DNA of 64,000 nucleotides from Leptospiraceae bacterium (GTDB taxonomy: Bacteria; Spirochaetota; Leptospiria; Leptospirales; Leptospiraceae), in the NCBI GenBank assembly GCA_016708435.1, contig JADJFV010000035.1, positions 128,001-192,000 on the forward strand, in the 5' to 3' direction. A program made the position numbers and the translations under genes. This document shows positions 5,487 to 51,274 of this stretch, one piece after another. The number at the start of each line of letters is the position of its first letter. Position 1 is the stretch's first letter. The notes below the pieces were generated by a model. That model ran no database searches. It was given only the letters and a program-made list of their open reading frames with translations, and had not been told where the DNA came from.

Positions 5487-5540
5487 TGGTACGTTTGTTG
5501 TAGGTGACGCATATATGCGTCACCTACAACAAACGTACCA
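5487..5540. repeat. 52-54 bp perfect palindrome (26-bp arms, no spacer) lying between the ilvD stop and the GT2 start
   Basis: GGTACGTTTGTTGTAGGTGACGCATAT|ATATGCGTCACCTACAACAAACGTACC read directly. It lies 14 nt after the ilvD stop and 13 nt before the GT2 ATG. It is GC-richer than its flanks. Confidence 0.9.
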
Positions 5541-7236: not shown

Positions 7237-7741
7237 TGTTTTTCCTCTAGGTATTAAGTGTTATATTTTTAATTATTGCAATACTTTTATTTAATTTTAG
7301 GAAAGGCTTTATTGTAAAGGCTTTTATGTTTTGAAGTATTTTTTTCTAAATACGCATATAAAGTCATTTTAGGAATGAAGACATTTATATAAATTAGATT
7401 CATTCCTTCTGACAAATAGAGTTTACTTCTTATTATGCGCTAATTTTTGCTAAAAATAAATTTTGAATCATCTTTAGACTGTCATTCCCGAAATCCCAAT
7501 TTATTCGCTTCATTCACACTTAATGCCAAGTGATGTTCAATGCTGTAAAATTTAAAAAAAAGAAGTTAACGCAATAGATGGTAGGATAGGCATCCTTGTC
7601 TGTCCAAGAACAGGTAAGGATGCTTAGTCTTCATTAAATTGACAGCATCGAACAATTTCGGGAATTTCTATTTGTTTAATACGTCCATACAATCTTTCGC
7701 GAAGGATTCTAATTGTTTTTCTAAAAATGGATTCGCTTTTT

Positions 7742-8344
7742 TTACAAAGGATTCAGAATAAAGATTTTCAAAAGCTGAAAACTTTGCTGGATATTTTTAC
7801 TAAGTAGAGTCTTATTAGTCTTAGCCTCTACTAACTCAAATTCAAATTCTGTATCGAGTTGATGATGGGAAAAAGGTAATCCAAAGGGTAATAAATAGAT
7901 ACCGAATACACTTAATCCGTACAAAGTATATGTTCTTTTAATATCTGTTTTTAAAATCTTTCCACGCAATATAAAATCGGCATCTTTACTATCAGACTCA
8001 GTGGCTACATATACTTCTTTGAATTTTTGATAAGACTGGATTTCTTTTTTCAAAGCATAAGTTAGGACTTTATTGGTTTGATAAAAAGCAAACGGCTCAA
8101 ATATTCTTTTATGTGAATTATCTGTTTCCCAAAGAACGAATGGGAACAAAATATAACCCATGTCAGTTTCATAATCTTTCTGCCTCAAATCTTGCATTAA
8201 TTCAATCGCAAATGATTTTGAAATTTTTTCACTTTCAATTTTTTTTGGTTTAGGTATAAAAAAAAATCTGTTTTGAATATTACAGTTTATAAAGAAAAAC
8301 ATAAGGAAAATAAGAATAAGCCGCTTTAAAAGAGTTAGATTCAT
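7742..8344 (-). CDS. Putative lipoprotein (paralog of the upstream gene)
   Basis: Signal peptide plus lipobox 'FFINC'. The C-terminal half aligns with the neighbour (KDADFILRGKILK / TEFEFELVEAKTNKTLL versus KDADFLISCKLKK / TEFELELKEIKTNQVVL). Confidence 0.5.
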   Translation of the reverse strand: MNLTLLKRLILIFLMFFFINCNIQNRFFFIPKPKKIESEKISKSFAIELMQDLRQKDYETDMGYILFPFVLWETDNSHKRIFEPFAFYQTNKVLTYALKKEIQSYQKFKEVYVATESDSKDADFILRGKILKTDIKRTYTLYGLSVFGIYLLPFGLPFSHHQLDTEFEFELVEAKTNKTLLSKNIQQSFQLLKIFILNPL

Positions 8345-9313: not shown

Positions 9314-9606
9314 ATGCCTGTTACGATTGAAAATATTAAAATATATGAAGTCTCAGAAATTGCAAAAAAATTAAAAGCAAAAACAAAAGACATTGAAAAT
9401 TTAGTTATCAAGAAAAAACTAAACGGACAAAAAATCGGAAACAAATATTATGTTTCCGAAAATAGCCAAAATATTTTTTTAACAGTAACTCAAATATTCT
9501 TTCTGGTTGGGAAAATTTTCATAACGAAGCACTGAAAGCAAGAAAAGAACATGAATCAGGGAAAGACAAAGGAAAAACTATGAAAGAAGTTTTTGGAAAT
9601 GATTGA
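9314..9606 (+). pseudogene. Antitoxin-like gene with an N-terminal excisionase/MerR-type HTH, frameshifted inside a T7 run
   Basis: HTH 'IYEVSEIAKKLKAKTKDIENLVIKKKLNGQKIGNKYYV'. The -1 frame after the T7 run at 9474-9480 continues '...SGWENFHNEALKARKEHESGKDKGKTMKEVFGND*', ending 2 nt before the toxin ATG. Confidence 0.45.
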
Positions 9607-9608
9607 CA

Positions 9609-9885
9609 ATGTATACTATTCTCATTAAAAAAAGAGCAGAAAAATTTATTTCCAAAGCTGAGAAGAATTTAAAAATATTACTCAAAAGCCATTTAGATAA
9701 TTTATCAGAAAATCCATTTATTGGGGAAGAATTGAAGAAAGATAAAAAAAGGAATTTTATCTTTCCATTTTAAATACAATAAAACGGATTATAGAATTGC
9801 CTACTTAATTGAACGAAATGAAATTCATATTTTACCTATTGGCACGAGAGAAAACTTTTACAAAGAATTAACTCAAATACTTTAA
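9609..9885 (+). pseudogene. RelE/ParE-family toxin gene, frameshifted in an A7 run
   Basis: Frame 0 gives 'MYTILIKKRAEKFISKAEKNLKILLKSHLDNLSENPFIGEELKKDKK'. After the A7 run at 9744-9750 the +1 frame gives 'GILSFHFKYNKTDYRIAYLIERNEIHILPIGTRENFYKELTQIL', a RelE/ParE fold signature (basic YR-I-Y core). Deleting one A restores a single 91-aa ORF. Confidence 0.5.
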
Positions 9886-9915
9886 TCAATCGCTCTAACT
9901 ATTTGCAATCTTGCT

Positions 9916-10776
9916 TCACAACCTATTTATAATCTCCGCTACTTCTTTCGGCTTCTCTAAGTGAATGGCATGTCTTGTGTGTTCGAGTAATATGAGTTTG
10001 CTACCACGGATATAGGACTTTAAAGTTCTCATGGCTTCGGGAGTTGTGATTAAGTCTTGTTTGCCGGAGATGATCCAAGTAGGGATTTTGATTTTACGGG
10101 CTTCGGAACCAAAGAAGATTTCATTTTCGCGCTCGATTGTGTTTTCGGCTAAGAACTTGTATTCTCTACTGTTCCATGCATGGACTAATGTCTTACGAAT
10201 GAGTTTAGATGGCATGGGAGTTTCTTTGTAATATAAATGCTGTAAGAGTCGCCCGACTTCTTCGTGATCAGCAGGAAATAACACAGCGCGCATTTTATCT
10301 CTTTCAGGATGAGGAATTCCTCCAGAAGAAAGTAATACCAGTTTTTGAATTCGTTTTATCTTACTGTCTTTTATCGCGATATGTTGCGAAATCAGCCCTC
10401 CCATGGAATGACCGCATAATATGATGTTATCCAGTGAAAGTATTTGAAATAATTTGTAGATCATATCCGAAAAAATATCTACTTGATAAAGATACTGAAT
10501 TTGTGGAAGCTTGCTTTTTCCAAATCCAGGTATGTCGATTATATTGAGTTTATATTTTTTATCTAGAAAAGGAATTATTTTTCTAAATCCGAAGGCTGAA
10601 TCTAAAAGTCCATGAATGAGAACAAGCGGCTGACCGTCATTTGGCGATACAAAGTAACTAATGTTATGCCCACCTATGTCCGCATAACATTGTTTTAACC
10701 CTAAGTCTTTTGTTAATACTTTGTAACGGGTGTAAGAAAAATATTTGTATATAAGATTGTATAAAATTTGATTCAT
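9916..10776 (-). CDS. Alpha/beta-fold hydrolase
   Basis: 'LVLIHGLLDS' oxyanion region and the 'GHSMGG' nucleophile elbow; 286 aa. Confidence 0.75.
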   Translation of the reverse strand: MNQILYNLIYKYFSYTRYKVLTKDLGLKQCYADIGGHNISYFVSPNDGQPLVLIHGLLDSAFGFRKIIPFLDKKYKLNIIDIPGFGKSKLPQIQYLYQVDIFSDMIYKLFQILSLDNIILCGHSMGGLISQHIAIKDSKIKRIQKLVLLSSGGIPHPERDKMRAVLFPADHEEVGRLLQHLYYKETPMPSKLIRKTLVHAWNSREYKFLAENTIERENEIFFGSEARKIKIPTWIISGKQDLITTPEAMRTLKSYIRGSKLILLEHTRHAIHLEKPKEVAEIINRL

Positions 10777-10823
10777 ATTTATTTTTAATTTTTCGTATAG
10801 TTTGGTGAGGCTGAAGCCTCAGT

Positions 10824-12035
10824 CTAAGATGCAACGCCTTTTATTAAATACATATCAATTTCGCCTTTGTTTTTTGCGGATACTTTGCCGCGATACTCGC
10901 ATAGAAACAAGTCTTTTACAAGTTCGTAGGTTGACGAGGAAATATTTATTTCTCCAACGATGCCAGATGATTCCATTCTGCTTGCAGTGTTGACTGTATC
11001 CCCCCAAATATCGTAGGCGATTTTTTCGTGACCAATTACTCCTGCCACTACACTTCCTGTATGAATTCCAATTCTTAATTCAAAGAATGGTTTTCCTTCT
11101 AATTCTTTTTTAGCACGAAGAAATTGCATATATTCTTTAAATTCTAAAGCGCATAATACTGTATCAACCGCATTTGTTTTGTTTGCTACTGGAATTCCTC
11201 CTGCCGCCATGTATGCATCTCCTATTGTCTTAATTTTTTCTACATTGTGTTTTTTTACAATGGAATCAAACACAGAAAAAATATGATCTAACTCGGATAC
11301 TAGTTCTTCAGGATTCATCTTCTCTGCAATTTTTGTAAATCCTGCCATGTCAGTAAATAACACAGACACAGTTTCATATTTGACAGGGACAACTATATTA
11401 TTTCGTTTTAACTCAATTGCAATCTTCTCAGGGAGGATACTTAAGAGTAGCTTGTCAGATTTTTTTCTTTCTAAGTCTAGATTTCTGGATAAAATAAAAA
11501 TTAAAAAGCCAGTGAATAATTGCACAAATGCATAGTTAAACGATGCGTCTAAGTATCTATCTTGATTAGTTTGAAACATAGTAATATACTGCGGGTAATA
11601 ATATTCTACCCCAAAAAGAGAAAGAGTCAAAATGGCATAGAATCCATAAACGAAGATAATATTATTATTTCGCAAAAGGATCGTTGCGATTACGAGCGCC
11701 GGAATGAGATAATAGTGAGAACCCCCATGCGAGCCACCATTCGTAACCCAATTTACAGAAAGAAAACTTACAATCGTTAAGTTAAGAGGCCAGTATAAAA
11801 CATAATAAATGTTTTTTACGCGAGCTAGATAATATAGAATTAGAAATAGAATGCCAGTTCCAAAATTTAAAACAAATAAAATTAAGAAATTAGGCAAATA
11901 AAAAGTTCCAAAAGAGCCGATTATGTTTAGAATTCCATTTGCAAGGGTAATGGAATTGAAAAGTCTATGTTCTAGAGAATTTATTTTGAAGTCTCCAATC
12001 AGTAGAACTAAGAGAGAAATTAATTTTTCTTTCAT
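10824..12035 (-). CDS. Membrane-anchored class III adenylate/guanylate cyclase
   Basis: N-terminal about 6 TM helices. C-terminal cyclase homology domain with 'FTDMAGFT', 'KTIGDAYMAAGG' and 'GIHTGSVVAGVIG'. Confidence 0.8.
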   Translation of the reverse strand: MKEKLISLLVLLIGDFKINSLEHRLFNSITLANGILNIIGSFGTFYLPNFLILFVLNFGTGILFLILYYLARVKNIYYVLYWPLNLTIVSFLSVNWVTNGGSHGGSHYYLIPALVIATILLRNNNIIFVYGFYAILTLSLFGVEYYYPQYITMFQTNQDRYLDASFNYAFVQLFTGFLIFILSRNLDLERKKSDKLLLSILPEKIAIELKRNNIVVPVKYETVSVLFTDMAGFTKIAEKMNPEELVSELDHIFSVFDSIVKKHNVEKIKTIGDAYMAAGGIPVANKTNAVDTVLCALEFKEYMQFLRAKKELEGKPFFELRIGIHTGSVVAGVIGHEKIAYDIWGDTVNTASRMESSGIVGEINISSSTYELVKDLFLCEYRGKVSAKNKGEIDMYLIKGVAS

Positions 12036-12168
12036 AACGAATTCATTTTCTCTATAAATACTTAACTACAAGTATTTTTCATAGGGTTTCACAAAAAAGA
12101 GCGGAAAACTTTTTTATAACTGGTAATCCTTTCAGGGTAATTGTAAATTAGATAACTAAAGGTAGGTT

Positions 12169-12570
12169 ATGAAAGATAAAATTACAATTATTCTTCGCAT
12201 TTTGACAGCGCTTATATTTCTTCAGACTTTGTATTTCAAATTTTCGGCAAGCCCTGAATCAGTTTATATTTTTTCTAAATTAGGCTTGGAACCGTATGGT
12301 AGAATTGCTTCTGGAATAGCGGAATTAGTCACTGCTGTCTTACTCTTATTACCCGCTACTTTTATACTTGGCGCTTTCATTTCTATTCTGATTATTTCGG
12401 GTGCAATTCTGAGTCATTTGACTTTACTTGGGATTGTAGTAATGGACGATGGTGGGTTGCTGTTTATTTTAGCGATTTCCATTTTTATTTTTTCTATTTT
12501 AATTTTATTCTTAAAGAAAGAAGGCGTAGTCCAAGTATTAAACCAGTTGGGTTTAAAAAAAGGAGTTTAA
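12169..12570 (+). CDS. DoxX-family membrane protein
   Basis: 133 aa with 4 TM helices and a DoxX-like N-terminus (RILTALIFLQTLYFKF). Confidence 0.6.
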   Translation: MKDKITIILRILTALIFLQTLYFKFSASPESVYIFSKLGLEPYGRIASGIAELVTAVLLLLPATFILGAFISILIISGAILSHLTLLGIVVMDDGGLLFILAISIFIFSILILFLKKEGVVQVLNQLGLKKGV

Positions 12571-12576
12571 TAGTCT

Positions 12577-13080
12577 ATGTTAAATCAAAAAATACTTTCA
12601 TTCTTAAGTTTCATAATGTTTTTTTTAATGCTGATTGCCAATTGTGCGAAAACAATAGAAAGTGAACCAACGAAAAAACATAAATTTGAAATTACAAAGA
12701 CTGATCATGAATGGAGAAAAATTCTTCCATCAGAGGCATACACAGTGTTACGCGAAAAAGGAACAGAGCGTCCGTTTTCTAGTGATATGCATTCTAACAA
12801 AGAAAAGGGTCAATATATTTGTGCTGCTTGCGGCAATCAGCTATTTACCTCTAAAGCAAAGTTTGACTCGGGCACAGGCTGGCCTAGTTTTTATGAGCCT
12901 ATCGACAAACAAAAAGTAGGCGAAGAAACCGACAGAAGTTGGGGAATGACTCGCACGGAAGTATTTTGCAATCGTTGCGGTGGTCATTTAGGACATGTAT
13001 TCAATGATGGACCACCACCTACCGGACTCAGGTATTGCATGAATGCCGTGTCACTGAAATTTATCAAGAGTGAAAAGTAA
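12577..13080 (+). CDS. msrB: Peptide-methionine (R)-S-oxide reductase MsrB, lipoprotein/secreted form
   Basis: The SelR domain has both CxxC zinc pairs (CAACGNQ ... CNRCGGH), 'GWPSF' and the catalytic 'RYCMNA'. N-terminal signal with lipobox 'IANC'. Confidence 0.9.
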   Translation: MLNQKILSFLSFIMFFLMLIANCAKTIESEPTKKHKFEITKTDHEWRKILPSEAYTVLREKGTERPFSSDMHSNKEKGQYICAACGNQLFTSKAKFDSGTGWPSFYEPIDKQKVGEETDRSWGMTRTEVFCNRCGGHLGHVFNDGPPPTGLRYCMNAVSLKFIKSEK

Positions 13081-13088
13081 TAGATTCA

Positions 13089-13589
13089 ATGCAAATAGAA
13101 ATTCAAAATTATTCCAATTTGATTCATCAATTAATTAATCATCTGAACCAAGTTCCAGAAAAGGGCTATTCGCAGAAGTTATCCATCTTAGGCGGTTCCA
13201 CCATTGGTGAGCATGTGCGGCATATATATAATTTCCCCGAATGCTTATTATTGGGAATTAAAACTGGAATTGTGAATTATGATAAGAGAAAGCGAGATAT
13301 ACAAATAGAAACGAATAGAGAGTATGCTGTAAAATTATTATTGGGGCAACTGAATGGATTTGCGGATTATGATAATAAACCTCTTATTTTAGAAACTGGC
13401 AACGACGCAACACTATCCTCTATGGACACTAACGTCAAGAGAGAACTTCATTATATCACAGAGCATACCATTCATCATATTGCAATTATTAGAATTGGAT
13501 TTAGTGTAAATTTCCCAGAAATGGACTTAGATAAAACTTTTGGATTTGCTTATTCTACGATACATTTTAAAGGACAGGTTTTTGAATAA
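13089..13589 (+). CDS. DinB/YfiT-like putative metal-dependent hydrolase (DinB_2 superfamily)
   Basis: The spacing of His motifs ('GEHVRH' ... 'EHTIHH') is typical of the DinB four-helix-bundle family. Confidence 0.5.
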   Translation: MQIEIQNYSNLIHQLINHLNQVPEKGYSQKLSILGGSTIGEHVRHIYNFPECLLLGIKTGIVNYDKRKRDIQIETNREYAVKLLLGQLNGFADYDNKPLILETGNDATLSSMDTNVKRELHYITEHTIHHIAIIRIGFSVNFPEMDLDKTFGFAYSTIHFKGQVFE

Positions 13590-13666
13590 AAAATAGTGCT
13601 TTCATAACATCTTTTGCATCGCTTAGGTATAATGAATAATGGCCTCTATTAGAAATTTTCATGGAT

Positions 13667-13897
13667 TTATTTCTTGAGTTTACTCTCTATTTTGCGCCGA
13701 AAGAATTCCCAGTCGTAGGAGATTTGCAACTGTTTCAATTCATTTTCTGCACCATATATTAGAAATTCTAAAACTTCTTGTTTGTTCATGCCTGTGGTTT
13801 GAGATACATCTGAGATGACACTATCCATTCTTCTCGAATCGCGATCATTTAAAATGAGATGGCTAGATATTTGGGATTCAAAAAGAGTAAGTTCCAC
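13667..13897 (-). CDS. Hypothetical small protein, translationally coupled to the upstream PilZ gene
   Basis: 76 aa ORF; its start overlaps the PilZ stop. Confidence 0.3.
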   Translation of the reverse strand: MELTLFESQISSHLILNDRDSRRMDSVISDVSQTTGMNKQEVLEFLIYGAENELKQLQISYDWEFFRRKIESKLKK

Positions 13898-14256
13898 TAG
13901 GCTTTTACCTTTCCTTGTGTAGTAATGCTTTCTGGTAAACCAATTTCATTTTGGAATTCGATACCCAAATAAAGCATATCCTGATCTCTGAATTCTTTAT
14001 GTAAATACCATACCATTTTTCCATTGACGCTCGTTACTTTTTGAAACTCTCCCTGTTCGTTTTTTTCTAAAAATTCAAACGAATAAGGTTTTTCTCTTTG
14101 TAAAAAAATCTCTTTGCTAAGAATGATGCAGGCTCCACTTACAGATATATCGTTTAAGATGCAATCTGCATGTCTTCCTGGATAAACTTCTATTTTTACG
14201 GAATAATGGTCTTTATTCTCTATATAAAACCGATTGTTTCTACGAATTTGTGCCAT
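13897..14256 (-). CDS. PilZ-domain protein (putative c-di-GMP receptor)
   Basis: N-terminal 'RRNNRF' (RxxxR) and 'NDISVSGACI' ((D/N)xSxxG), the two signature c-di-GMP-binding motifs of PilZ. Confidence 0.6.
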   Translation of the reverse strand: MAQIRRNNRFYIENKDHYSVKIEVYPGRHADCILNDISVSGACIILSKEIFLQREKPYSFEFLEKNEQGEFQKVTSVNGKMVWYLHKEFRDQDMLYLGIEFQNEIGLPESITTQGKVKA

Positions 14257-14440
14257 GCTACCTCTCGAACTGTAAGTCTAACACTATCTCCACAAATTTG
14301 CAAGACTTTGTGTGAATTATTGGAAAAAAGGAAAGCAGTTTTTGCAATAAAAGGGAAAAAAATCGCTATCTTTTACTTATGTCGCATGTTACTTTTTATA
14401 AAAAAAAATAACACAAAAAGTAACCCTTTTTTTAAATGGC

Positions 14441-15325
14441 TTGAGAGCCTTAATATTTTTAGGAAAGGAATTAGCATTGTCAAACTGGAATTTTTTAAAA
14501 CAGACTATCGAGAAGGATGATTTTATCATCGATTGCAGAAATCAATCTGCCTATGAAGAGAGCACTATCAAGGGTGCTTATTATTTCCCTTTCATTAAAA
14601 AGGCATTTGGTTCAGATACCGAATCGCAAAAAAAAATGTATACTCCTTTAAAAGCGATTCTTGGTTTAATCAATGATTCCAATAAATCGAGGGTCATTGT
14701 TTTTGATGAGGGCATGGGAATGTTCTCCGCTAGAATGGTTTACCTTCTGCGAGCAATTGGATTTAAAGAAGCTTATATATTAGCATTGAAATGGCCTTTT
14801 GATGGAGAGACAGAGAAGGGCAAATTGCTAGTAGACGTTGAACCGACTGAAAAAGCAAAGCCGTTAGCGGGCGTAGTAGATAAGGCGTTCATGGAAAAGA
14901 ATCTAACTCGCTTGCAAATCTTTGACACTAGAACAAAAGAAGAATACGATGGAAAGCTTCCGCGCCTTACTAGCCCTGAACCAGGAACGTTATCCGGCAG
15001 ACTGCCCGGAGCCTTTCTTTGGGACTGGCAGACATTTTATGATCAAGAAGGGTTTGTCATTACCCGTGAACTTTTTATTAAACGGCTACAGGGCTTTCCT
15101 TTTATGCCGGAGAGAACAACTGTCTTGTATGATTACAATGGCGCAAGATCGTGCTTATGCGCTCTCATGCTTAAAGAAGTTGGATACCAAGATGTTTTAA
15201 CTTATCAGGGTTCTTGGTTTGAATGGAGAAAATCAAATCTACCAAAGCAAGCTGTTTCTCTTTACGGAACAAGTGCTGCTACGACAGCTGCTCCAAGAGT
15301 TGGCGGAATTGACAGGAAGAAATAA
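14441..15325 (+). CDS. Tandem-rhodanese sulfurtransferase (thiosulfate / 3-mercaptopyruvate sulfurtransferase-like)
   Basis: Two rhodanese-like halves. The second carries the active-site cysteine loop 'NGARSCLCA'. 294 aa. Confidence 0.7.
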
Positions 15326-15349
15326 TAATTACAAAACTAGGAGTTTATT

Positions 15350-17725
15350 ATGATTAAAAAAATAATATTAGGTATTCTCATATCCATTTACCTAAATTGT
15401 TCGGGAACTCAGAACATAGGTGTTCGTGTTCTTGAAAATGTATCAACCAAAGGGGAATTAGGATCTGAAGTTCAATACAAAATAGATAATAAAACATTGC
15501 ATATATTCAATGGAAAATTATCATTCGTAGAATTTCCTTTAGATAGATCTTTTTTGACCATAGCAAAAGGTTCTCCGAGCGTTAAATACAATTTAGCCGC
15601 ATTTAAGTTTAAAGATGAGTATACGATGAGATGTGCAAATCAATCGATTGATAAAATCGAAAAGATTCAAGATGGAATTAAAATTTCTGGAATACTACAC
15701 GGACAAGATTGCTTTATTAAATACTTTATTGACTTAACTGCCGAAAACAAACAAAGCCTAAATTTTTCAGTTCATCTTGCTGATAAAACATTCAATCGTA
15801 TTAATTTAGTTTATAGATCTGTAAAAGAAGAACAGTTTTTTGGATTTGGAGAACAATACACTCATTTTAATATGAAAGGAAAAAAGCCTTTTATATTTAC
15901 AGAAGAGCAAGGAATAGGAAGAGGAGATCAACCGATTACCTTTGGTGCTAACCTCACGCAAGGAGCCGGTGGAAATGAATATACAAGTTATGCTCCAATG
16001 CCTCATTACATAACAACGAATAACCGCTCGGTTTATTTTGAAAATAGCGCATACTCCAAATTTAACTTTGAACATGATGAATATGTAAAAGTATTATTCT
16101 GGGACAATAATTTAAAAGGCACTATTTGGGTATCGGATAAACCACTTGAACTAATTGAGATGTATACCGCAAAGACAGGACGTTATCAAGGTCTTCCTGA
16201 TTGGGCTTATGGAACATGGTTAGGTTTACAAGGCGGAACTGATAAAGTTAAAAAAGTTATTAAAGAAGCTAAGCTTGCGGGTAATCCCGTTACTGCGCTT
16301 TGGATTCAGGATTGGGTTGGTAGACGTGTAACAGGATTTGGAGACCAATTAAAATGGAGATGGTATGCACAAGAAAATTCCGAATTTAAAGACTCCGATG
16401 GAAATCCAGAACCAGCGTATCCTGAATTCAAAAATTTCACAGCCGAGATGAATAAGGATGGAGTAAAAGTTTTAGGTTATATTAATTCGTTTCTTGCGGA
16501 GACGAACGCTCCTACAAGTCCTAAGCAACCAATTAAAGAGCCGAACAGTTGCGGTTACAAGCGATTTATCCCATTCAATGACTGTAAGCCAGAGAGAGAG
16601 CCTGATTCATTTGCGAACCCAATGCTAGAAGAAGCAAAAGCAAAAGGATACCTTGTTAAAAATCAATCCGGCGAAGACTATATGATTGAGACGGTGGGCT
16701 TTCCTGCTTACTTAATTGACTTAACAAATCCAGAAGCTGTAAAATGGACAAAAGATATTATCAAAAAAAATATGATAGAACAAGGTCTTTCCGGTTGGAT
16801 GGCCGACTTTGGTGAGTGGCTTCCATTCGACGCAAAACTTCACAGCGGAGTTTCTGCAGAGCTATATCATAATATCTATCCAGTAGATTGGGCAAGAATC
16901 AATCGGGAAGCAATTCAGGAAGCAGGTAAAGAAGGTGAAATCATTTTCTTCACACGCGCGGGTTATACTGGGTCTAATCGTTATTCGACTGCATTTTGGT
17001 TAGGCGATCAAATGGTTAGCTTTGGAGTTAACGACGGATTAGCCTCTACAATCGTTGGACTAAATTCAAGCGGGATAAGTGGAATCGCTATTAACCACAG
17101 CGACATCGGCGGTTATACTGGTCTGAAAAATCCACCTTTTTATTTTCCAAATTACGATAGAACAGAAGAGTTAAATAGACGTTGGTCAGAAATGAATGCG
17201 TTTACTCCGATTTACCGCACACATGAAGGAAATGTTCCTGGACGTTTTAATCAAGTATATTCAAGCACATACAACAAAAAAACGGACAAAGACGGTAGAC
17301 CAATTTTATATCCAGAAAATAATTCAGATATAAACAGTGTAAATGCATTTGCTCGTTTTGGAAAAATTCATTATGCGCTAAAGGATTATTTTTCTCATCT
17401 CGTAGGAGAAGCAAAAGAAAAAGGATATCCTGTCATTCGTCACCCTTACTTAAATTATCCATCTGACCCTAACACTTACAATTTAAAATACCAGTTCATG
17501 GTTGGTGAGGATATTCTCGTTTTGCCGGTATACACAAAAGGCGATACAGAGGTTACTGGGTATTTTCCAAAAGGAAAATGGAAACATGCATTCACTGGAA
17601 AAACTATAATCGGTGGACATACATTTAAAGTCCCCGCACCGTTAGGTGAACCAGCAGTCTATGTAAAAGAAGGTGGTGCCTGGTCTGATAGAATTTTTAA
17701 TAGTATTCAGACGGCTCTCAAGTAA
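15350..17725 (+). CDS. Glycoside hydrolase family 31 lipoprotein (alpha-glucosidase/xylosidase-like; substrate unknown)
   Basis: Lipobox 'YLNC'. GH31 catalytic region 'WIQDWVG' ... 'WMADFGEW' (nucleophile Asp) ... 'RAGYTGSNRY'. 791 aa. Confidence 0.8.
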   Translation: MIKKIILGILISIYLNCSGTQNIGVRVLENVSTKGELGSEVQYKIDNKTLHIFNGKLSFVEFPLDRSFLTIAKGSPSVKYNLAAFKFKDEYTMRCANQSIDKIEKIQDGIKISGILHGQDCFIKYFIDLTAENKQSLNFSVHLADKTFNRINLVYRSVKEEQFFGFGEQYTHFNMKGKKPFIFTEEQGIGRGDQPITFGANLTQGAGGNEYTSYAPMPHYITTNNRSVYFENSAYSKFNFEHDEYVKVLFWDNNLKGTIWVSDKPLELIEMYTAKTGRYQGLPDWAYGTWLGLQGGTDKVKKVIKEAKLAGNPVTALWIQDWVGRRVTGFGDQLKWRWYAQENSEFKDSDGNPEPAYPEFKNFTAEMNKDGVKVLGYINSFLAETNAPTSPKQPIKEPNSCGYKRFIPFNDCKPEREPDSFANPMLEEAKAKGYLVKNQSGEDYMIETVGFPAYLIDLTNPEAVKWTKDIIKKNMIEQGLSGWMADFGEWLPFDAKLHSGVSAELYHNIYPVDWARINREAIQEAGKEGEIIFFTRAGYTGSNRYSTAFWLGDQMVSFGVNDGLASTIVGLNSSGISGIAINHSDIGGYTGLKNPPFYFPNYDRTEELNRRWSEMNAFTPIYRTHEGNVPGRFNQVYSSTYNKKTDKDGRPILYPENNSDINSVNAFARFGKIHYALKDYFSHLVGEAKEKGYPVIRHPYLNYPSDPNTYNLKYQFMVGEDILVLPVYTKGDTEVTGYFPKGKWKHAFTGKTIIGGHTFKVPAPLGEPAVYVKEGGAWSDRIFNSIQTALK

Positions 17726-17730
17726 AAAAA

Positions 17731-17766
17731 TAAAAAAGTGCTCTGTGTTTTTTTCTCACAGAGCAC
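17731..17766 (-). terminator. Hairpin terminator between convergent genes (GTGCTCTGTG-loop-CACAGAGCAC, A-run on the plus side)
   Basis: 10-bp perfect stem with a T-rich loop. The A9 run on the plus strand equals a U-run after the stem for the minus-strand gene. Confidence 0.5.
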
Positions 17767-17796
17767 GCAGAGAGAGTGATCAATACTCTCTATAGA

Positions 17797-19605
17797 TTAC
17801 TCCACTTTCTCCATTTCATATCCCGAATAGGTTAATATCTCTTTGCCGCTAACCTGTTTTACAGAAATTGTGTCACCTTTTCCTCTTCCGAGTCCGGCGA
17901 CAATTGCTTCTTTATCGCTCAATATTTGAAGAGCTAGTTTCTGTATTACGTCAACATTAGCCGCTGGAATTCCATTATTTTCAAAGATGAGAAATCCTTT
18001 TTCTATTTTTAATTCTGGATTTTTTATCATACCAGCATTGTCTTTGTCATCGTTTAGAATTTTATATTTACCGAGACGATTTTTCCATGATACTGAGATT
18101 GAATCTGCTGGCGTAATTTTACTTCCCCATAATACGATATTTCCTCCTACTTTAAGATAAAGCAATTTGTCTTTCTCGATGGTTTTAAATTTAAACTGTA
18201 ATGGCGGGTTAATCGTAAATAGCCCGAAAATTTTTAGTTTTGCATTTTGCCACAATCCTTCTTTGTCCGGTAATATAAACTTTATGCCAGTATCTAATTT
18301 TGCCGAAACATTATTGTCATCGACTTCTACTTTCATAAGAGCACCATTTTGATAAACTCCGGCGTAAGACGACATATCTGTATTTGCCTCTTCGGGCTTT
18401 TTATTTTCTGTTGGTTTTTTGTAACCTGTTTTTGTTTCCAAGGAAATTTGAAGAGCCTTGCTTGCAATATCATACACTACAGGAGCAGAAGTATTTGTAT
18501 TTGATAGCACTATTACTCCTAGCTTTTCTTTTGGAAGAATTCCAAGCATGGCATGATACAAAAAAGTATCTCCTCCATGCGATATGCTAAAAATATCATT
18601 TCCTAAATCAAATGTGTTTATAAAGAAACTTAGACCAATTTTAAAATCATCATCTAGTGCGTTACTCTGATTTTGTATCGTATAAATTTCTTTTAAGGTA
18701 GACTCTTTCAGATAGCTAACACCATTTATCCGCCCATCATTTATAAATAATTGAATCACTTTGGACAGATCATTGACGGATGAATTTAAAAATCCTGCGG
18801 GTAAGTCTCGTAAGCCAGCTTCCGCGACTTCTGATTTAAAGATTAATCCGCCGTATCCTTTGGCGAAAACGTTTTTCTTATCTAAATTTATTTCATAGAA
18901 AGAATGCTCCATGCCCAGTTGTTTAAATAATTTTTTATCTAATACATTTGCATAAGAATCACCGGATACTTTTTCAATGATTCGTCCTAGAATCGAATGT
19001 CCTAAATTCGAATAAGAAAAAATAAATTCAGGTGGGTAACTTACGTATTCCCCGGATATGTCATGAACTAATTTTTCTAAGGAATCAGTCTTTGAATAAG
19101 AAAAAAATCCTTTCATTCTATCAGATGGCAAACCGGAATGATGTGTTAGAATAGAACGAATTGTGATTGGTTTTGATTTTGGAAATCTAGAATTTAGTTT
19201 TAACTCAGGTAGGTATTGGCTAATATCCTTATCTAAATTTAGTTTTCCTTCTTCCACTAATTTCATTGTAATAACTAAATTAATAATCTTAGACACGGAT
19301 GCGGTTCTGAAGATTGTATCCGAATTGACTTCGATTTTATTTACCTTGTCAGAAAAACCAAATCCTTTTGCGAATAATATCTCTTTGTCGGTAACTACAC
19401 TTACTCCTAGTCCAACAACAGATGCTTCATTCATTTTTACGGGAATGTAATTGTTTAGGTATTCATTCAAATAAGAATAATCATTTTTGGGGATTGTATC
19501 CGGTTTTTGCGGTAGAGAATTGCAATTGAATAAAAATATATTCAGTATCAATACTACCGAATATATAAAATTTTGGAGCTTAGGTTTTAATTTTCTATCA
19601 TTCAT
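17797..19605 (-). CDS. Serine hydrolase of the beta-lactamase / PBP family (class C-like) with a C-terminal extension
   Basis: 'FRTASVSK' (S-x-x-K), 'YSN' and a KTG-like box; 602 aa with a signal peptide. Confidence 0.8.
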   Translation of the reverse strand: MNDRKLKPKLQNFIYSVVLILNIFLFNCNSLPQKPDTIPKNDYSYLNEYLNNYIPVKMNEASVVGLGVSVVTDKEILFAKGFGFSDKVNKIEVNSDTIFRTASVSKIINLVITMKLVEEGKLNLDKDISQYLPELKLNSRFPKSKPITIRSILTHHSGLPSDRMKGFFSYSKTDSLEKLVHDISGEYVSYPPEFIFSYSNLGHSILGRIIEKVSGDSYANVLDKKLFKQLGMEHSFYEINLDKKNVFAKGYGGLIFKSEVAEAGLRDLPAGFLNSSVNDLSKVIQLFINDGRINGVSYLKESTLKEIYTIQNQSNALDDDFKIGLSFFINTFDLGNDIFSISHGGDTFLYHAMLGILPKEKLGVIVLSNTNTSAPVVYDIASKALQISLETKTGYKKPTENKKPEEANTDMSSYAGVYQNGALMKVEVDDNNVSAKLDTGIKFILPDKEGLWQNAKLKIFGLFTINPPLQFKFKTIEKDKLLYLKVGGNIVLWGSKITPADSISVSWKNRLGKYKILNDDKDNAGMIKNPELKIEKGFLIFENNGIPAANVDVIQKLALQILSDKEAIVAGLGRGKGDTISVKQVSGKEILTYSGYEMEKVE

Positions 19606-19617
19606 AACATTACCTCT

Positions 19618-19645
19618 ATTTAGATAATTAGACAGTTATCTAAAT
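19618..19645. promoter_or_regulatory. 10-bp perfect inverted repeat (ATTTAGATAA-N8-TTATCTAAAT) between the divergent beta-lactamase-family and arsR genes
   Basis: Read from the sequence. An adjacent ATCTAAAT direct repeat follows. A candidate operator for the ArsR-type regulator. Confidence 0.3.
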
Positions 19646-19757
19646 ATCTAAATGGCGTCAATCTAAAAATAAATTACTTATAGTAGAAAAACTTTCTTTC
19701 AAAAAATAAAAAATCGTATACAAAAATAAATTCTTTAAGCCTTGTTATTTTAAACAG

Positions 19758-20033
19758 ATGGATATTGTATTTAAAGCTCTAAACGATAAAACTAGAAGAG
19801 AAATCCTAGAATTATTAAAGGAAAAAGATTTGACTGCTGGAGAAATTTCGGATCAGTTTAATATTTCAAAGCCTACTATTTCTCATCACTTAGATTTATT
19901 AAGGCAGGCAAATTTAGTAGTGAGCATTAAACAGGGACAGTATATTTATTATTCAATCAACAGCACAGAACTTGATGAATTGCTGAAATGGATTTTAAAG
20001 GTAAAAGACAAAGTCAAAGGAAAGAAAAAATGA
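19758..20033 (+). CDS. ArsR/SmtB-family transcriptional regulator (SdpR-like)
   Basis: wHTH 'ISKPTISHHLDLLRQANLV'. 91 aa. Its stop overlaps the start of the downstream SdpI-like gene (ATGA). Confidence 0.8.
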   Translation: MDIVFKALNDKTRREILELLKEKDLTAGEISDQFNISKPTISHHLDLLRQANLVVSIKQGQYIYYSINSTELDELLKWILKVKDKVKGKKK

Positions 20034-20679
20034 AGTCAATACTCAAGCGAGAAATTTCTTTTTGGATCCTTCTTCTATCGCAGTTTCTATTTTTGATTTA
20101 TGCTGGAGATAAAATTCCTTCTGAATTTCCTGTGCATTGGGACTTCAACGGAAATCCAGATTCCTATTCAAATAAATATACTCTTCCAATTTTAAACACA
20201 GTTATTTATCTTGCTCTTTTATTAATCCCGAAAGTGGATCCGAGAAAAGAAAACTATAAATTATTTTCAGATTCTTATTTTAAAATTCGATTTCTACTAA
20301 CGCTTGCATTTGTCTTAATTTTCTATGGAATCTGTCTTCGATACTTTGGATTTCAATTTTCCGAAGCCAAATTAATCTTTATCTTTGTTTTATCTATCTT
20401 TACAATCATCGGAAATTATATGCGTAGCTTTCGTCCCAATTGGTTTGTTGGAATCCGCACCCCTGGACTTTAGAAAATGAAACAGTTTGGAAAAAGACTC
20501 ATGAACTTGGCGGAAAACTTTTCTTCTACAATGGGCTAATAGGAATTATCCTATGCTTATTTTTAGATGGAAAAATTTTGTCTTTTATTGTTTTTACTTT
20601 AATCCTAACTGCGAGTCTAATACCGGTTATCTACTCCTACATTTACTATCGAAAGATAAATCCTAAATCAACCAAATAG
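20030..20679 (+). pseudogene. SdpI/YhfL-family membrane protein gene split by a 1-nt frameshift in a C-run
   Basis: The upstream ORF ends '...RPNWFVGIRTPGL*'. The next frame begins 'WTLENETVWKKTH...'. One extra C at 20455-20458 would give the SdpI signature 'GIRTPWTLEN'. Confidence 0.6.
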
Positions 20680-20697
20680 ACTCTATTCATATCCCTG

Positions 20698-21216
20698 CTA
20701 TTCGATTTGTCGTAGAATTCCTTTTAGCATGGTAGGGACGATGAGCTGATGAAAAGGTTTTACAGGTAGAAAATATAGACTTCCGAAAATATTCTTGAAC
20801 TTTACTGAAGTCGTAATGTTTATGAAATGTTTTTCTTCTTTAGATTCTACTAGAAGAGACACTCTAAAATCTAAATGCTTATCGTCTTCGCCTAAAATTA
20901 TTTCCTTTTCCGTAAGTGCAAAGACTTTGAATAATCCGATTTGCTTACCTACTTGGAAATCAAAGTCTTTTATAGAAGTTCGATCTAGGTTAGAGCTTGG
21001 AGTCTTTAATCCAAAAAGGGATACGATTTTATTTCGGAGAGAAAATAATTTGTCTATCCAAACAGGAGAAGAAGAAAAAAAGGCTCTGCCTAAATCAATG
21101 GACGTAATTCTTCGTTGGGAAATGCATTCTCCTTTGTAACTATCAAAATAGTCATAGTTTGGGTGCATTTCAGATAATTTAGAATTTTGCAATATGGTTT
21201 GCCTTTGAACTTTCAT
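20698..21216 (-). CDS. DUF2867-like protein
   Basis: 'DYFDSY' and 'LRNKIVSLFGLKT' resemble DUF2867 (family recall, moderate). Confidence 0.4.
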   Translation of the reverse strand: MKVQRQTILQNSKLSEMHPNYDYFDSYKGECISQRRITSIDLGRAFFSSSPVWIDKLFSLRNKIVSLFGLKTPSSNLDRTSIKDFDFQVGKQIGLFKVFALTEKEIILGEDDKHLDFRVSLLVESKEEKHFINITTSVKFKNIFGSLYFLPVKPFHQLIVPTMLKGILRQIE

Positions 21217-21320
21217 AATACTCTACTTACAATAAATTTTACTAGATACCCGATAATCATGATACTCCGCAATGGTTTATTTATAGAAACTACGATAGGA
21301 TATATTTCTTTAAAGATTTA

Positions 21321-21992
21321 CTATTTGACTACTAGCCTTGTCATCTTCTCTGCAAGACCAATGCTTGCAGTAGTGCCAGAATTAAATTCTAAAAAGTCAG
21401 ACTCCATTCCATCGGAAAAAATCACACCTGCTTCGGGCATATGACTTTCGAGGATAATTTTATTTTGCTCGGAAATTTCGCCCGCAACTAAGTCTGCTCC
21501 ACTCCATTTACTACGAAATGGTTCGCGGACAATGAAGATTAGCCTTCTCTCGTCCCATTCGAGCTTCATACCGCCTAATTCTGATTTGTCGCCTTGGAAG
21601 CCAGCGATTCCCCTTACCATATTAAATAAGGAACTCAACCATCCGGTAGAGCCGGCGGGTGTTGATATGACTACGCCACTTGAACTATGACGTTCTTGTC
21701 TGCCCTGAAATTTTATTGTATAACGGGCACTGATATGAGACTTTGCTCCGATAAAAAAATCGTTGAAGGCAAACAAGTGTTGTCCGTCATTTAACTCTAC
21801 TTTGCCCATGGTGATATTTCGAATGCGGGGACTTCCTTTTAATAAAGTATTCACTGCTTGGGCAAGAGTAGGAATTTGAAAGGGAAGTAAAATCCCATCA
21901 AACCTTTCCGGGTCTGGATTGACAGCAATGATTGGCTGACCATTCAAATACTTCGCCGTATTTACAACAAGTCCATCTTGACCTAGAGTCAT
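21321..21992 (-). CDS. NAD kinase family (ATP-NAD kinase-like) catalytic portion
   Basis: 'DVVMTLGQDGLVV' (a GGDG-like motif) and 'ISTPAGSTGWLSS' (NAD kinase C-terminal motif). The frame stays open about 40 codons upstream of the annotated Met. Confidence 0.6.
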   Translation of the reverse strand: MTLGQDGLVVNTAKYLNGQPIIAVNPDPERFDGILLPFQIPTLAQAVNTLLKGSPRIRNITMGKVELNDGQHLFAFNDFFIGAKSHISARYTIKFQGRQERHSSSGVVISTPAGSTGWLSSLFNMVRGIAGFQGDKSELGGMKLEWDERRLIFIVREPFRSKWSGADLVAGEISEQNKIILESHMPEAGVIFSDGMESDFLEFNSGTTASIGLAEKMTRLVVK

Positions 21993-22246
21993 TACAACAT
22001 CTTTGGGACCGAATACGAAGTTTGGAAGAAAATTTCTATCAATAACTTGGAGTTTAATATCAGAGGAATTGCATGTGCTACTTGGTCGCGTGCATACTGA
22101 TAATTAGAATCTTCCTTTTCGTAATCATCGAAAGACTGACCTCTCGATTGAACAAAGAATTTTGCCTGAGCCTTTGTGCTGAAGCGCTGCACGCTCTCTT
22201 GCAAACGAGTGGCTCGGATAACGAGTATTATCTTTTCTATTTCCAT
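21992..22246 (-). CDS. Small ORF overlapping the NAD-kinase-like gene start by 1 nt; probably the frameshifted N-terminus of that gene
   Basis: 84 aa 'MEIEKIILVIRATRL...'. The stop/start overlap is TAATG, while the kinase frame is open far upstream of its Met. Confidence 0.35.
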   Translation of the reverse strand: MEIEKIILVIRATRLQESVQRFSTKAQAKFFVQSRGQSFDDYEKEDSNYQYARDQVAHAIPLILNSKLLIEIFFQTSYSVPKML

Positions 22247-22252
22247 TAAAGT

Positions 22253-22480
22253 TTAGGCTGTAACCTTTGTGTTTTGGAAAATTAGAATATAATCATCAAC
22301 GCCTTCCTGAAAAGTTTTTTTTAATTCGCTCAAAGATTTTCCTTCGAAGGTAACTAGATCATCAATTTCTTCTATCTTGCCATAGAATACTTCATCCCCA
22401 GAATTATAATGCATTGATCCAATAAAATCTTTATAAGTTAAATGGTCTTTCATGATTAAACCTTCCAATTTCTTTCTCAT
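22253..22480 (-). CDS. HicB-like antitoxin (N-terminal HicB_lk_antitox-type domain), orphan
   Basis: 'YKDFIGSMHYNSGDEVFYGKIEEIDDLVTFEGKSLSELKKTFQEGVDDYI' matches the HicB-family core. No HicA ORF was found in the 336-bp upstream gap. Confidence 0.55.
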   Translation of the reverse strand: MRKKLEGLIMKDHLTYKDFIGSMHYNSGDEVFYGKIEEIDDLVTFEGKSLSELKKTFQEGVDDYILIFQNTKVTA

Positions 22481-27571: not shown

Positions 27572-27757
27572 CTACTTCTCTTTAACCTCTGTAATCTTTC
27601 CCGTCGGGACATGAAGAAGGTAATTTCGTTTATCCACTGAGAATTCGATATTGCCGGTGTAGGGTTGTTTCAGTTTTAGGATTTGTTCGGAGTCCAATAT
27701 TTCTTTTATAGAAAAACTTTGCTTTATTTGAAGGGGAATTTGTTTGATTAATTTCAT
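27572..27757 (-). CDS. Hypothetical small protein, overlapping the stop of the upstream lipoprotein gene
   Basis: 61 aa ORF with an ATGA overlap to 27754..28548. Confidence 0.25.
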   Translation of the reverse strand: MKLIKQIPLQIKQSFSIKEILDSEQILKLKQPYTGNIEFSVDKRNYLLHVPTGKITEVKEK

Positions 27758-28548
27758 ATCGTTCGCTTTAAGTTCATCAAATAGTTTATAAGGATAAAAA
27801 ATATATTTACTTTATTTTCACCTCTTTGCAGTTTTAAACATTTGTAAAATATACAAACTTCTTCCCAAGCAATGCAGTGATTACAATCACTAATTGGATG
27901 AACATAAACTTGATCAGAACTCTGATATAAATTCTTTTTTTCCAATGTATTTATATCAATAGTGTGGTATGAAAATAAACCGCCACCACCATCTCCGATA
28001 GTATAATAACTTATAAGAGTATCATTATCATACCAATAAGTTATATTTTTTTTCTCAATTCTATTTATAAGCTTAAAATTTTTCTTATTTCGTATTTCCA
28101 TATAACATAGATACTCGATTTCGGCGTATAGATCATTGCAATCTACTTGGTGCGTTGTGCTTACGATATTCCCTGTCTTTGGATGCTTAATTGTAAAAAA
28201 ATAAAACTTATCTCTACTAGGACTAAAGACTGGCTCAGAGAGGTAAACATCGAATACCCAACCAGAATCATTTCCGACTTCGACTTTAAACCATTTACCT
28301 TTTTGTTCTTCGATTGTGTCATTTCTTTCATTTTCAGGAAGTTGTTTGTGGCTAACCATTGTTCCGCGCGGAAGGAGTCGGATAGATTTTGCTTTGCGAG
28401 AAGGCGCATCGCGAAGATTGAGTCCACTATCGGGAGTTACAATCCATTTTTTAATAAGAGCCTTGTCTTCTGGATTTTCATTTGGTTTAGAATCTTGGAT
28501 TGATTTGCAACTCAGTAAGACTAAGATTAGAAACAAAAAGAATTTCAT
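27754..28548 (-). CDS. Lipoprotein with a bacterial SH3-like (SH3b) domain
   Basis: Lipobox 'LLSC'. 'GLNLRDAPSRKAKSIRLLPRGTMVS...KGKWFKVEVGNDSGWVFDVYL' is typical of SH3_3. Confidence 0.5.
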   Translation of the reverse strand: MKFFLFLILVLLSCKSIQDSKPNENPEDKALIKKWIVTPDSGLNLRDAPSRKAKSIRLLPRGTMVSHKQLPENERNDTIEEQKGKWFKVEVGNDSGWVFDVYLSEPVFSPSRDKFYFFTIKHPKTGNIVSTTHQVDCNDLYAEIEYLCYMEIRNKKNFKLINRIEKKNITYWYDNDTLISYYTIGDGGGGLFSYHTIDINTLEKKNLYQSSDQVYVHPISDCNHCIAWEEVCIFYKCLKLQRGENKVNIFFILINYLMNLKRTI

Positions 28549-48267: not shown

Positions 48268-48317
48268 CCATAGAAAAGAAGTATTCAAAAATAAAAATCC
48301 GAAAGGAATTGAATCAA

Positions 48318-51273: not shown

Positions 51274-51274
51274 T

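Follow-up and report, generated by a model that had tools for sequence, protein, structure and literature searches.

The window, a stretch of 64,000 nucleotides from a contig of a Leptospiraceae bacterium metagenome-assembled genome (MAG), contains a pair of small toxin–antitoxin (TA) genes, an SdpI-like membrane protein gene preceded by a regulator gene, and a NAD-kinase-like gene. An earlier note on this DNA had described both TA genes, the SdpI-like gene and the NAD-kinase-like gene as broken. All four splits were confirmed, each caused by the gain or loss of one base in a homopolymer run, but the count was too low: a further base is missing at both 7793-7797 and 27795-27800, and there is a nonsense codon at 33326-33328. 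The genes and lesions are as follows (a private lesion is one seen in the window and not in its relatives).

7668..8344, minus strand: hypothetical gene with a private T6 to T5 lesion at 7793-7797; T6 and a 225-aa gene in 4/4 relatives
9314..9606, plus strand: antitoxin pseudogene, frame change at T7; one added T gives 97 aa
9474..9480, plus strand: T7 run, a real 1-nt deletion (T8 to T7); T8 in orthologues, T7 in the window and L001
9609..9885, plus strand: ParE-like (RelE/ParE superfamily) toxin pseudogene, frame change at A7; removal of one A gives 91 aa
9744..9750, plus strand: A7 run, a real 1-nt insertion (A6 to A7); A6 in intact orthologues, A7 in the window and conspecifics
19758..20033, plus strand: ArsR-family HTH regulator gene, from relatives' gene calls and Pfam HTH_5/HTH_20 matches
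20030..20679, plus strand: SdpI-like membrane protein gene, a single 216-aa product in relatives, here 147 aa and 79 aa
20460..20463, plus strand: C4 run, private lesion C5 to C4; in frame in 7/7 conspecific assemblies
21321..22246, minus strand: NAD-kinase-like gene, called as 308 aa in all conspecifics, here 84 aa and 223 aa
22065..22066, minus strand: CC on the gene strand (GG on the plus strand), private lesion C3 to C2; plus-strand GGG in 4/4 conspecific assemblies
27575..28548, minus strand: SH3-domain protein gene with a private A7 to A6 lesion at 27795-27800, split into 264 aa and 61 aa; A7 in L110 and L111
33326..33328, minus strand: private nonsense codon, CAA to TAA, in an SBBP-repeat gene (32867-34240); CAA in three other assemblies

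Five of the six single-base length changes fall in ancestral runs of at least 5 bases, and such runs make up 5.5% of the bases of the window. The association of lesions with homopolymers is therefore far above chance (P ~3e-6, binomial, by our own arithmetic). All four private length changes are deletions (T6 to T5, C5 to C4, C3 to C2 and A7 to A6), and every assembly covering them disagrees with the window: 4/4 at 7794, 7/7 at 20460-63, 4/4 at 22065 and 2/2 at 27796. Two other candidates were rejected as lesions. The TonB-receptor ORF at the end of the window continues to the edge without interruption, and it is the sister MAGs that are broken there; the overlapping ORFs at 46462-48267 and 48158-49156 agree with the gene calls of relatives.

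Source of the window and comparison set

The window comes from an NCBI MAG named Leptospiraceae bacterium (321,773-bp contig, proteins MBK70584xx, locus tags IPH52_). It shares its accession series with the activated-sludge MAGs that Singleton et al. (2021) assembled from Nanopore reads; the link to that study runs through the accession, the locus-tag series and the sibling MAG JADJBD. In that study, Nanopore reads were assembled with CANU, followed by Racon, two rounds of medaka and one round of Racon with Illumina reads (PMC8012365). Its Supplementary Data 3 places JADJBD in the genus UBA2033 at 14.7x Illumina and 8.3x Nanopore coverage (PMC8012365); for the MAG of the window, accession arithmetic points to JADJFV, with 11.3x Illumina and 14.1x Nanopore coverage. 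Sibling MAGs of the genus UBA2033 are of ~6 Mb (PMC8012365).

The window was compared with sister species and with about 20 independently assembled genomes or contigs of its own species, at 99.0-99.7% identity. The scan of the genome collection returned matches from other species only. Recombination tracts and ~170 private SNPs set the window apart from its conspecifics as a strain of its own.

Lesions of the toxin–antitoxin module are common to conspecifics

The two TA genes are neighbours, the antitoxin stop codon at 9604-9606 adjoining the toxin ATG at 9609. When repaired, the 97-aa antitoxin shares 94-95% identity with intact orthologues of the same length in L027-L030; its N-terminus gave sub-threshold DNA-binding matches only (HTH_17, E 0.006; excisionase, E 0.017). 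The toxin, repaired to A6, matches Pfam PF15781 (ParE-like_toxin) over positions 2-86 of the 87 in the profile (E 9.4e-17, 61.2 bits, cut-off 28), and its 91 residues also match PF05016 with 31.5 bits (cut-off 23). Its identity to P0001 and P0002, two intact homologues of 91 aa, is 88-91%. Beyond the two frame changes, the TA genes carry no further stops or indels.

The combination T7/A7 occurs in six assemblies including the window, and it aligns without a gap in the five others, namely GCA_018057905.1, GCA_016718635.1 and three ENA metagenome scaffolds. Compared with the window, the TA region shows gap-free identity in L001, L005, L006 and L007 and is 99.85% identical in L002. Among the six assemblies, no run-length polymorphism was found at the TA sites. 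T8/A6 is present in L027-L030 and L032, and syntenic orthologues with T8/A6 and intact 97-aa and 91-aa genes come from GCA_025360185.1 and three short contigs; in L031 the TA module is absent. Substitutions in the toxin on the lineage of the window (4 synonymous, 5 nonsynonymous) are compatible with relaxed constraint. Because T7/A7 is identical in five other assemblies, which come from other projects, the TA lesions are genuine, and both genes are pseudogenes throughout the species. This loss of both genes of a ParE-like module in an entire species-level population is the one biological result here, and a modest one.

Lesions private to the window

The ArsR-family gene and the beginning of the SdpI-like gene share 4 nt. 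In its intact conspecific form of 216 aa, the SdpI-like protein matches PF13630 (SdpI) with 71 bits (cut-off 28.2) and PF07853 (DUF1648) with 41 bits, and this domain match, together with the HTH gene upstream, places it in the SdpI family with an ArsR/SdpR-like regulator. The split had been correctly ascribed to a C4 run at which C5 restores 'GIRTPWTLEN', giving 216 aa; the run lies at 20460-20463, 5 nt from the position 20455-20458 first assigned to it. The two fragments, MBK7058435.1 and MBK7058436.1, were found in the MAG of the window only. L126, reached through a member of a protein cluster, carries the local SdpI allele of the window, but with C5, and is intact, and the ancestral state at this site was taken from it. 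In scans of metagenome DNA, the window SdpI haplotype was not found with either C4 or C5, the L126 allele differing from the scan pattern by one downstream base. The lesion is located within a strain-specific recombination tract.

In the NAD-kinase-like gene, one base added at 22065-22066 gives the 308-aa product. The 223-aa ORF begins at an internal Met, and the lesion is found 24 codons upstream of it. The split is real and the kinase frame is open upstream of this Met, as had been noticed, over 37 codons instead of about 40. A conserved separate gene in relatives, matching the N-terminal ORF, would have counted against the reading of the earlier note. The outcome favours that reading, as the N-terminal ORF is no such gene: in tblastn searches, a single-frame match over residues 1-307 was obtained in five other species (87-96% identity), in which the two parts are fused in frame. 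Alignment to human NADK2 runs across the split (residues 5-124, E 8e-6, a distant similarity), with the N-terminal ORF aligned as a portion of the NAD kinase fold. Among the NAD kinase models of NCBIfam, the best match reaches 27 bits, far below its cut-off of 309; Pfam returned NAD_kinase_C alone, at E 0.25, and the motif is GQDG as against GGDG of NAD kinase. From these matches, the protein is best described as NAD-kinase-like in its fold, short of an assignment as NadK (NadK/PpnK). A PADLOC scan of the gene and its neighbours gave no matches, and an exact look-up of the 84-aa fragment and several private-variant proteins gave no match in the positional index.

Three other genes carry private changes. 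The repaired product of 7668..8344 reads through to 225 aa. The SH3-domain gene was recovered by tblastn in two frames in the window; its 264-aa and 61-aa products occur in the MAG of the window only, while intact products of 321-325 aa are found in NCBI, ENA and Logan sources and strengthen the case at 27796. The SBBP-repeat gene is interrupted by the nonsense codon, and its 304-aa product was likewise found in the MAG of the window only, most other members of the cluster having 449-466 aa. The nonsense change at 33328 is either a real mutation or a mixed-strain polishing error. As it is no homopolymer error, at least one gene-breaking change here needs another cause.

Assembly error or mutation

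Comparison with further assemblies separates the four genes of the earlier note into two groups: the TA lesions are common to conspecifics, and those of the SdpI-like and NAD-kinase-like genes are private to the window. The proposed choice between sequencing error and decay for all four genes together holds in part, since error fits the latter two and is wrong for both TA genes. Private indels were also found in other MAGs of the series. Four homopolymer deletions in an AcrB-like gene are private to GCA_016718635.1, the window matching a contig from another project there; this MAG has two further private indels, and GCA_016703885.1 has three. In sum, private 1-2-nt coding indels number 13 in ~198 kb of the MAG series versus 0 in ~280 kb from other projects (P ~1e-5, our own arithmetic). 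Private substitutions of the window amount to 116 synonymous and 23 nonsynonymous, and the isolated ones to 15 synonymous, 6 nonsynonymous and 1 nonsense. Because they are strongly synonymous, selection is acting, and broken genes should be rare. With the genes of relatives intact, the same substitutions leave the suggested genome-wide reductive decay unsupported.

The explanation that best accounts for all these data, and that we consider probable with good confidence, joins real decay of the toxin and antitoxin with residual assembly errors at the four private deletions. According to it, replication slippage in the common ancestor of the species-level population would have removed one T from the T8 run of the antitoxin gene and inserted one A into the A6 run of the gene for the ParE-like toxin; both changes would then have been fixed, leaving the module a dead remnant. 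The window, in turn, would stem from a lightly polished, low-coverage Nanopore MAG in which one base was under-called in each of four homopolymer runs (7793-7797, 20460-20463, 22065-22066 and 27795-27800), artificially splitting the SdpI-like gene, the NAD-kinase-like gene and two others that are most likely intact in the organism. The sequences show where each lesion lies and what it is, which lesions are shared and which are private, and what the intact ancestral states were; that the private ones are errors and not strain-specific mutations is the most likely reading of the assemblies.

The main alternative, which we consider unlikely, is that all lesions are real and the strain is losing accessory genes by homopolymer slippage, either as a mutator deficient in mismatch repair or under relaxed selection. 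Slippage in vivo has the same homopolymer and deletion bias, the strain is distinct by its private SNPs and recombination tracts, the affected SdpI-like, SH3, SBBP and hypothetical genes look dispensable, and the nonsense transition at 33328 is no homopolymer artefact. In exact look-ups and metagenome scans, the haplotype of this strain for the affected genes was not found independently, either intact or broken; the repaired window-haplotype SdpI, NAD-kinase-like and SH3 proteins had no exact match in the collection. However, given the substitution counts, frameshifts would need to survive far better than missense changes, and the same class of lesion occurs at other sites in two sister MAGs of the long-read series and nowhere in the ~280 kb from other projects. 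A MAG is moreover a population consensus, so that knock-outs fixed at this density, four in 20 kb, would add up to hundreds genome-wide. It is accordingly doubtful, slightly more so than the general form of this alternative, that the four deletions and the nonsense codon are real and mark a strain that is a hypermutator (e.g., through defective mismatch repair) or under relaxed selection, within a member of the Leptospiraceae (UBA2033) abundant in activated sludge. If true, it would mean that the strain sheds accessory envelope and immunity genes by homopolymer slippage while close relatives keep them.

Two other alternatives concern the TA genes. That everything, TA frameshifts included, is sequencing error would be favoured by the position of the TA lesions in the longest runs (7-8 nt), the worst context for Nanopore, 454 and Ion reads; but the five other assemblies with identical T7/A7 come from at least three other projects and samples and show no indel polymorphism, and related lineages assembled by similar methods have T8/A6, which makes this reading scarcely credible. 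It is also very improbable that the TA frameshifts are functional, allowing low expression by ribosomal or transcriptional slippage, or phase-variable. In the zero frame, the sequence at the antitoxin site is T TTT TTA, a canonical slippery heptamer for -1 shifting, and such a shift would bring the gene back into frame; at the toxin site, AAA AGG requires +1 and AAA re-pairing is possible, and the genes have not accumulated other stops or indels. Nevertheless, a one-base change in a long homopolymer yields such a motif automatically, the orthologues are simply in frame with T8/A6, run length is invariant in the six assemblies, and the toxin substitutions are compatible with relaxed constraint. 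Nor is there a downstream stimulatory structure (z = +0.68 after T7 and -1.3 after A7, against shuffled sequences). Programmed recoding of the TA genes was rejected, as the out-of-frame arrangement is not conserved and a downstream structure is lacking.

Consequences for annotation

The value of these results is practical and lies chiefly in annotation. In GenBank, the fragments already stand as proteins of their own (MBK7058435.1/436.1 for SdpI, MBK7058442.1/443.1 for SH3 and MBK7058449.1 for SBBP), and the split genes of the window should not be taken as biology unless the split is common to other assemblies. Comparison of near-identical public assemblies can separate real pseudogenes from assembly artefacts without reads. 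What is found here is most likely a known artefact beside ordinary TA decay.

Comparison with known systems

The private lesions resemble the residual homopolymer indels of R9-era Nanopore genomes and MAGs in that they are single-base deletions private to one assembly, split conserved genes and recur at other sites in siblings from the same pipeline. They differ in that the run at 22065 is only 3 nt long, that the SdpI lesion lies in a strain-specific recombination tract, where strain divergence may add to polishing failure, and that the errors are inferred here from assemblies and not seen in reads. Reductive decay is another parallel. Leptospira borgpetersenii undergoes it genome-wide and has many pseudogenes, and here too a member of the Leptospiraceae has several genes broken over a few tens of kb. 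Unlike in such decay, there are no IS elements and no nonsynonymous excess, the affected genes are intact in conspecific assemblies, and the genome is large, sibling MAGs of the genus being of ~6 Mb.

Programmed -1/+1 frameshifting or slippage is known from the A AAA AAG site of dnaX, the retroviral U UUU UUA and the poly(A) slippage rescue of endosymbionts. Slippery motifs are present at both TA sites, and for the antitoxin the shift needed has the correct direction; in contrast to programmed sites, there is no downstream structure, orthologues are in frame and the TA runs are only 7 nt. The TA genes can also be set beside the pseudogenisation of type II (ParE/RelE) modules by slipped-strand events, with which they have in common adjacent small antitoxin and toxin genes and a ParE-like domain. 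Presence/absence turnover is expected of TA modules, and this one has been kept intact by sister lineages while L031 lacks it. It departs from the TA pseudogenes known in having one lesion in each partner, both homopolymeric, with the intact form known from sequence.

Split genes in the window

All four gene splits at homopolymers claimed in the earlier note are seen in the sequence, and single-base repair yields products of 97 aa (antitoxin), 91 aa (toxin), 216 aa (SdpI-like), and 308 aa (NAD-kinase-like). The observation is extended by two further frameshifts and a stop, to six frameshifts and one nonsense codon in total. Homopolymer runs of at least 5 bases make up only 5.5% of the window bases and runs of at least 6 only 2.4%, so the placement of lesions in runs is far from chance. 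For a survey of private lesions (seen in one assembly only), 40-odd loci of about 20 other assemblies were aligned to the window, and four single-base deletions were found at which every covering assembly differs from it.

Broken genes of the window (homopolymer length given as intact state to window)
7668-8344, minus strand: 225-aa hypothetical gene; private T6 to T5 at 7793-7797, outside the range of the earlier note; intact in 4 of 4 assemblies
9314-9606: antitoxin gene; frame switch at T7 run 9474-9480
9609-9885: toxin gene; frame switch at A7 run 9744-9750
20030-20679: SdpI-like gene; private C5 to C4 at 20460-20463; intact in 7 of 7 assemblies
21321-22246, minus strand: NAD-kinase-like gene, split into 84 + 223 aa; private C3 to C2 at 22065-22066; intact in 4 of 4 assemblies
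27575-28548, minus strand: SH3-domain gene, split into 264 + 61 aa; private A7 to A6 at 27795-27800; intact in 2 of 2 assemblies
32867-34240, minus strand: SBBP-repeat gene; private nonsense CAA to TAA at 33326-33328 (transition at 33328)

Comparison with about 20 other assemblies divides the four genes of the earlier note. Its sequencing-error reading is supported for the SdpI-like and kinase-like genes, where the deletions are private, and fails for the two toxin–antitoxin (TA) genes, whose T7 and A7 runs are shared by other assemblies.

The toxin–antitoxin pair

Over its 661 bp, the TA region has the same gapless sequence in four other assemblies and differs slightly in a fifth (99.85% identity); the five are GCA_018057905.1, GCA_016718635.1, and three scaffolds from ENA metagenomes. 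Searching with the repaired toxin returned intact 91-aa homologues with 88–91% identity, at loci carrying an intact pair of 97-aa and 91-aa genes; in GCA_025360185.1 the surroundings of the pair also match the window, with a 243-aa gene upstream and a hydrolase followed by a cyclase downstream. In the DNA alignment, intact orthologues have T8 and A6 where the window’s species has T7 and A7. The repaired toxin matches the whole Pfam ParE-like_toxin model (E 9e-17) and belongs to the ParE/RelE superfamily by Pfam thresholds, while the helix-turn-helix (HTH) matches of the antitoxin are all sub-threshold. The module is absent from a third lineage (L031). On these alignments the TA lesions are genuine and not errors of assembly; the module presents ordinary decay via slipped-strand changes, one per gene, fixed in the population. 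Programmed frameshifting was also considered and rejected, as there is no supporting downstream RNA structure and the run length is invariant among assemblies.

A second TA-like pair, at 50905-51631, is intact in the window and consists of a RelE-family gene (122 aa; PF06296 in relatives) and an MqsA/HTH_3-like gene. Two more divergent relatives, L016 and L017, have truncated versions of the RelE gene (84 and 41 aa).

Genes with private lesions

The SdpI-like gene terminates after ‘GIRTPGL’ owing to its C4 run, which the earlier note had identified correctly but placed 5 nt away. Its guess that C5 would restore the frame is borne out by L126, an independent ENA scaffold with the window’s allele, which has C5 and an intact 216-aa gene. 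The protein passes the SdpI and DUF1648 thresholds, and its gene comes after an ArsR-family gene. The deletion lies within a tract of synonymous SNPs private to the window, a tract that agrees with the L126 allele. Private SNP clusters spaced by multiples of three occur at 15265-15313, 20350-20461, 52847-52965, 58438-58654, and 63088-63150; window-wide, clustered private SNPs are 101 synonymous vs. 18 nonsynonymous, and the clusters resemble short tracts recombined from diverged alleles. Examples of individual window-private SNPs are those at 20449-20458, 21616, and 27846.

The open kinase frame upstream of the second ORF’s Met, put at about 40 codons in the earlier note, extends over 37 codons. 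In five other species the NAD-kinase-like gene is matched over 307 residues in one frame, and its alignment to human NADK2, over residues 5–124, crosses the split; the N-terminal ORF is therefore not a separate conserved gene. The curated NAD kinase cut-offs are not reached and the similarity to NAD kinases is distant, and the protein is best described as NAD-kinase-like in its predicted fold, not as NadK. Directly upstream lies a 75-aa UPF0150/HicB-like ORF (22253-22480, minus strand), a neighbour conserved in relatives; PADLOC gave no match for this ORF or for the kinase-like protein.

The deletion at 7793-7797 leaves a 200-aa ORF with a changed C-terminus. The two SH3-domain fragments, deposited in GenBank as MBK7058443.1 and MBK7058442.1, are confined to this metagenome-assembled genome (MAG), and other sources have products of 321–325 aa. 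The SBBP-repeat product is 304 aa here vs. 449–466 aa in most other cluster members.

Other features of the window and its relatives were recorded. A perfect 54-bp palindrome (5487-5540; 27-nt arms, no spacer) between a glycosyltransferase gene and ilvD is kept in relatives. A private in-frame 3-nt (CGC) insertion at 53271-53273 falls in the repetitive part of a Borrelia_P83-like gene, and the repeat around it is length-variable among assemblies. In L122 (ERZ17861834) the contig duplicates the glycosyltransferase/DUF1564 region in inverted orientation, which probably reflects misassembly of that data set.

Sequencing error or mutation

By exact-sequence look-up, the window proteins belong to an NCBI ‘Leptospiraceae bacterium’ MAG (MBK70584xx, locus tags IPH52_, 321,773-bp contig). 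Its siblings in the accession series, GCA_016718635.1 (IPO06), GCA_016720625.1 (IPQ05), and GCA_016703885.1 (JADJBD), are 99.0–99.7% identical to the window. Supplementary Data 3 of Singleton et al. 2021 (PMC8012365) places JADJBD in genus UBA2033 and gives its coverage as 14.7x Illumina and 8.3x Nanopore. Judging by the accession series, the window’s assembly is probably the JADJFV entry of the same paper, Bjer_18-Q3-R1-45_MAXAC.114 of BioProject PRJNA629478, for which 11.3x Illumina and 14.1x Nanopore are given. The paper describes CANU assembly of Nanopore reads, polished with Racon, twice with medaka, and once with Racon using Illumina reads (PMC8012365).

Four lines of evidence suggest that the private deletions are sequencing or assembly errors. 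All private frameshifting lesions of the window (4/4) are deletions in homopolymers. Private lesions of this type also occur in sister MAGs: GCA_016718635.1 shows four homopolymer deletions (A7 to A6, A6 to A5, G4 to G3, and G3 to G2, corresponding to window 1152, 1324, 1641, and 2282) within 1.2 kb of an AcrB-like gene, where it has no gene called and where the window and L120, a scaffold of another project, agree with each other and are intact; two further private indels occur in GCA_016718635.1 and three in GCA_016703885.1. Other projects have none: about 280 kb of their aligned sequence contains 0 private 1–2-nt coding indels, and about 198 kb of this MAG series contains 13 (P ~1e-5 by our own arithmetic). 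Finally, window-private substitutions are 116 synonymous vs. 23 nonsynonymous (isolated ones 15 synonymous, 6 nonsynonymous, and 1 nonsense), and selection is therefore acting; under it, genuine frameshifts would be expected far less often than missense changes, and not at the observed 4 vs. 23. The same ratio lends no support to reductive genome decay, the other explanation offered in the earlier note.

However, error as the source of every private gene-breaking change meets several objections. The transition at 33328 is no homopolymer artefact; either a true mutation or a mixed-strain polishing error may account for it. For the comparison assemblies, contig names are the one hint at sequencing technology, and some of these are in SPAdes or MEGAHIT style. 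Metagenome DNA scans and exact protein look-up returned no independent copy of the window’s strain haplotype for the affected genes. Error remains the reading favoured for the four deletions. The significance of these results is mainly a warning for the annotation of the window, and all of the observations are within known phenomena.
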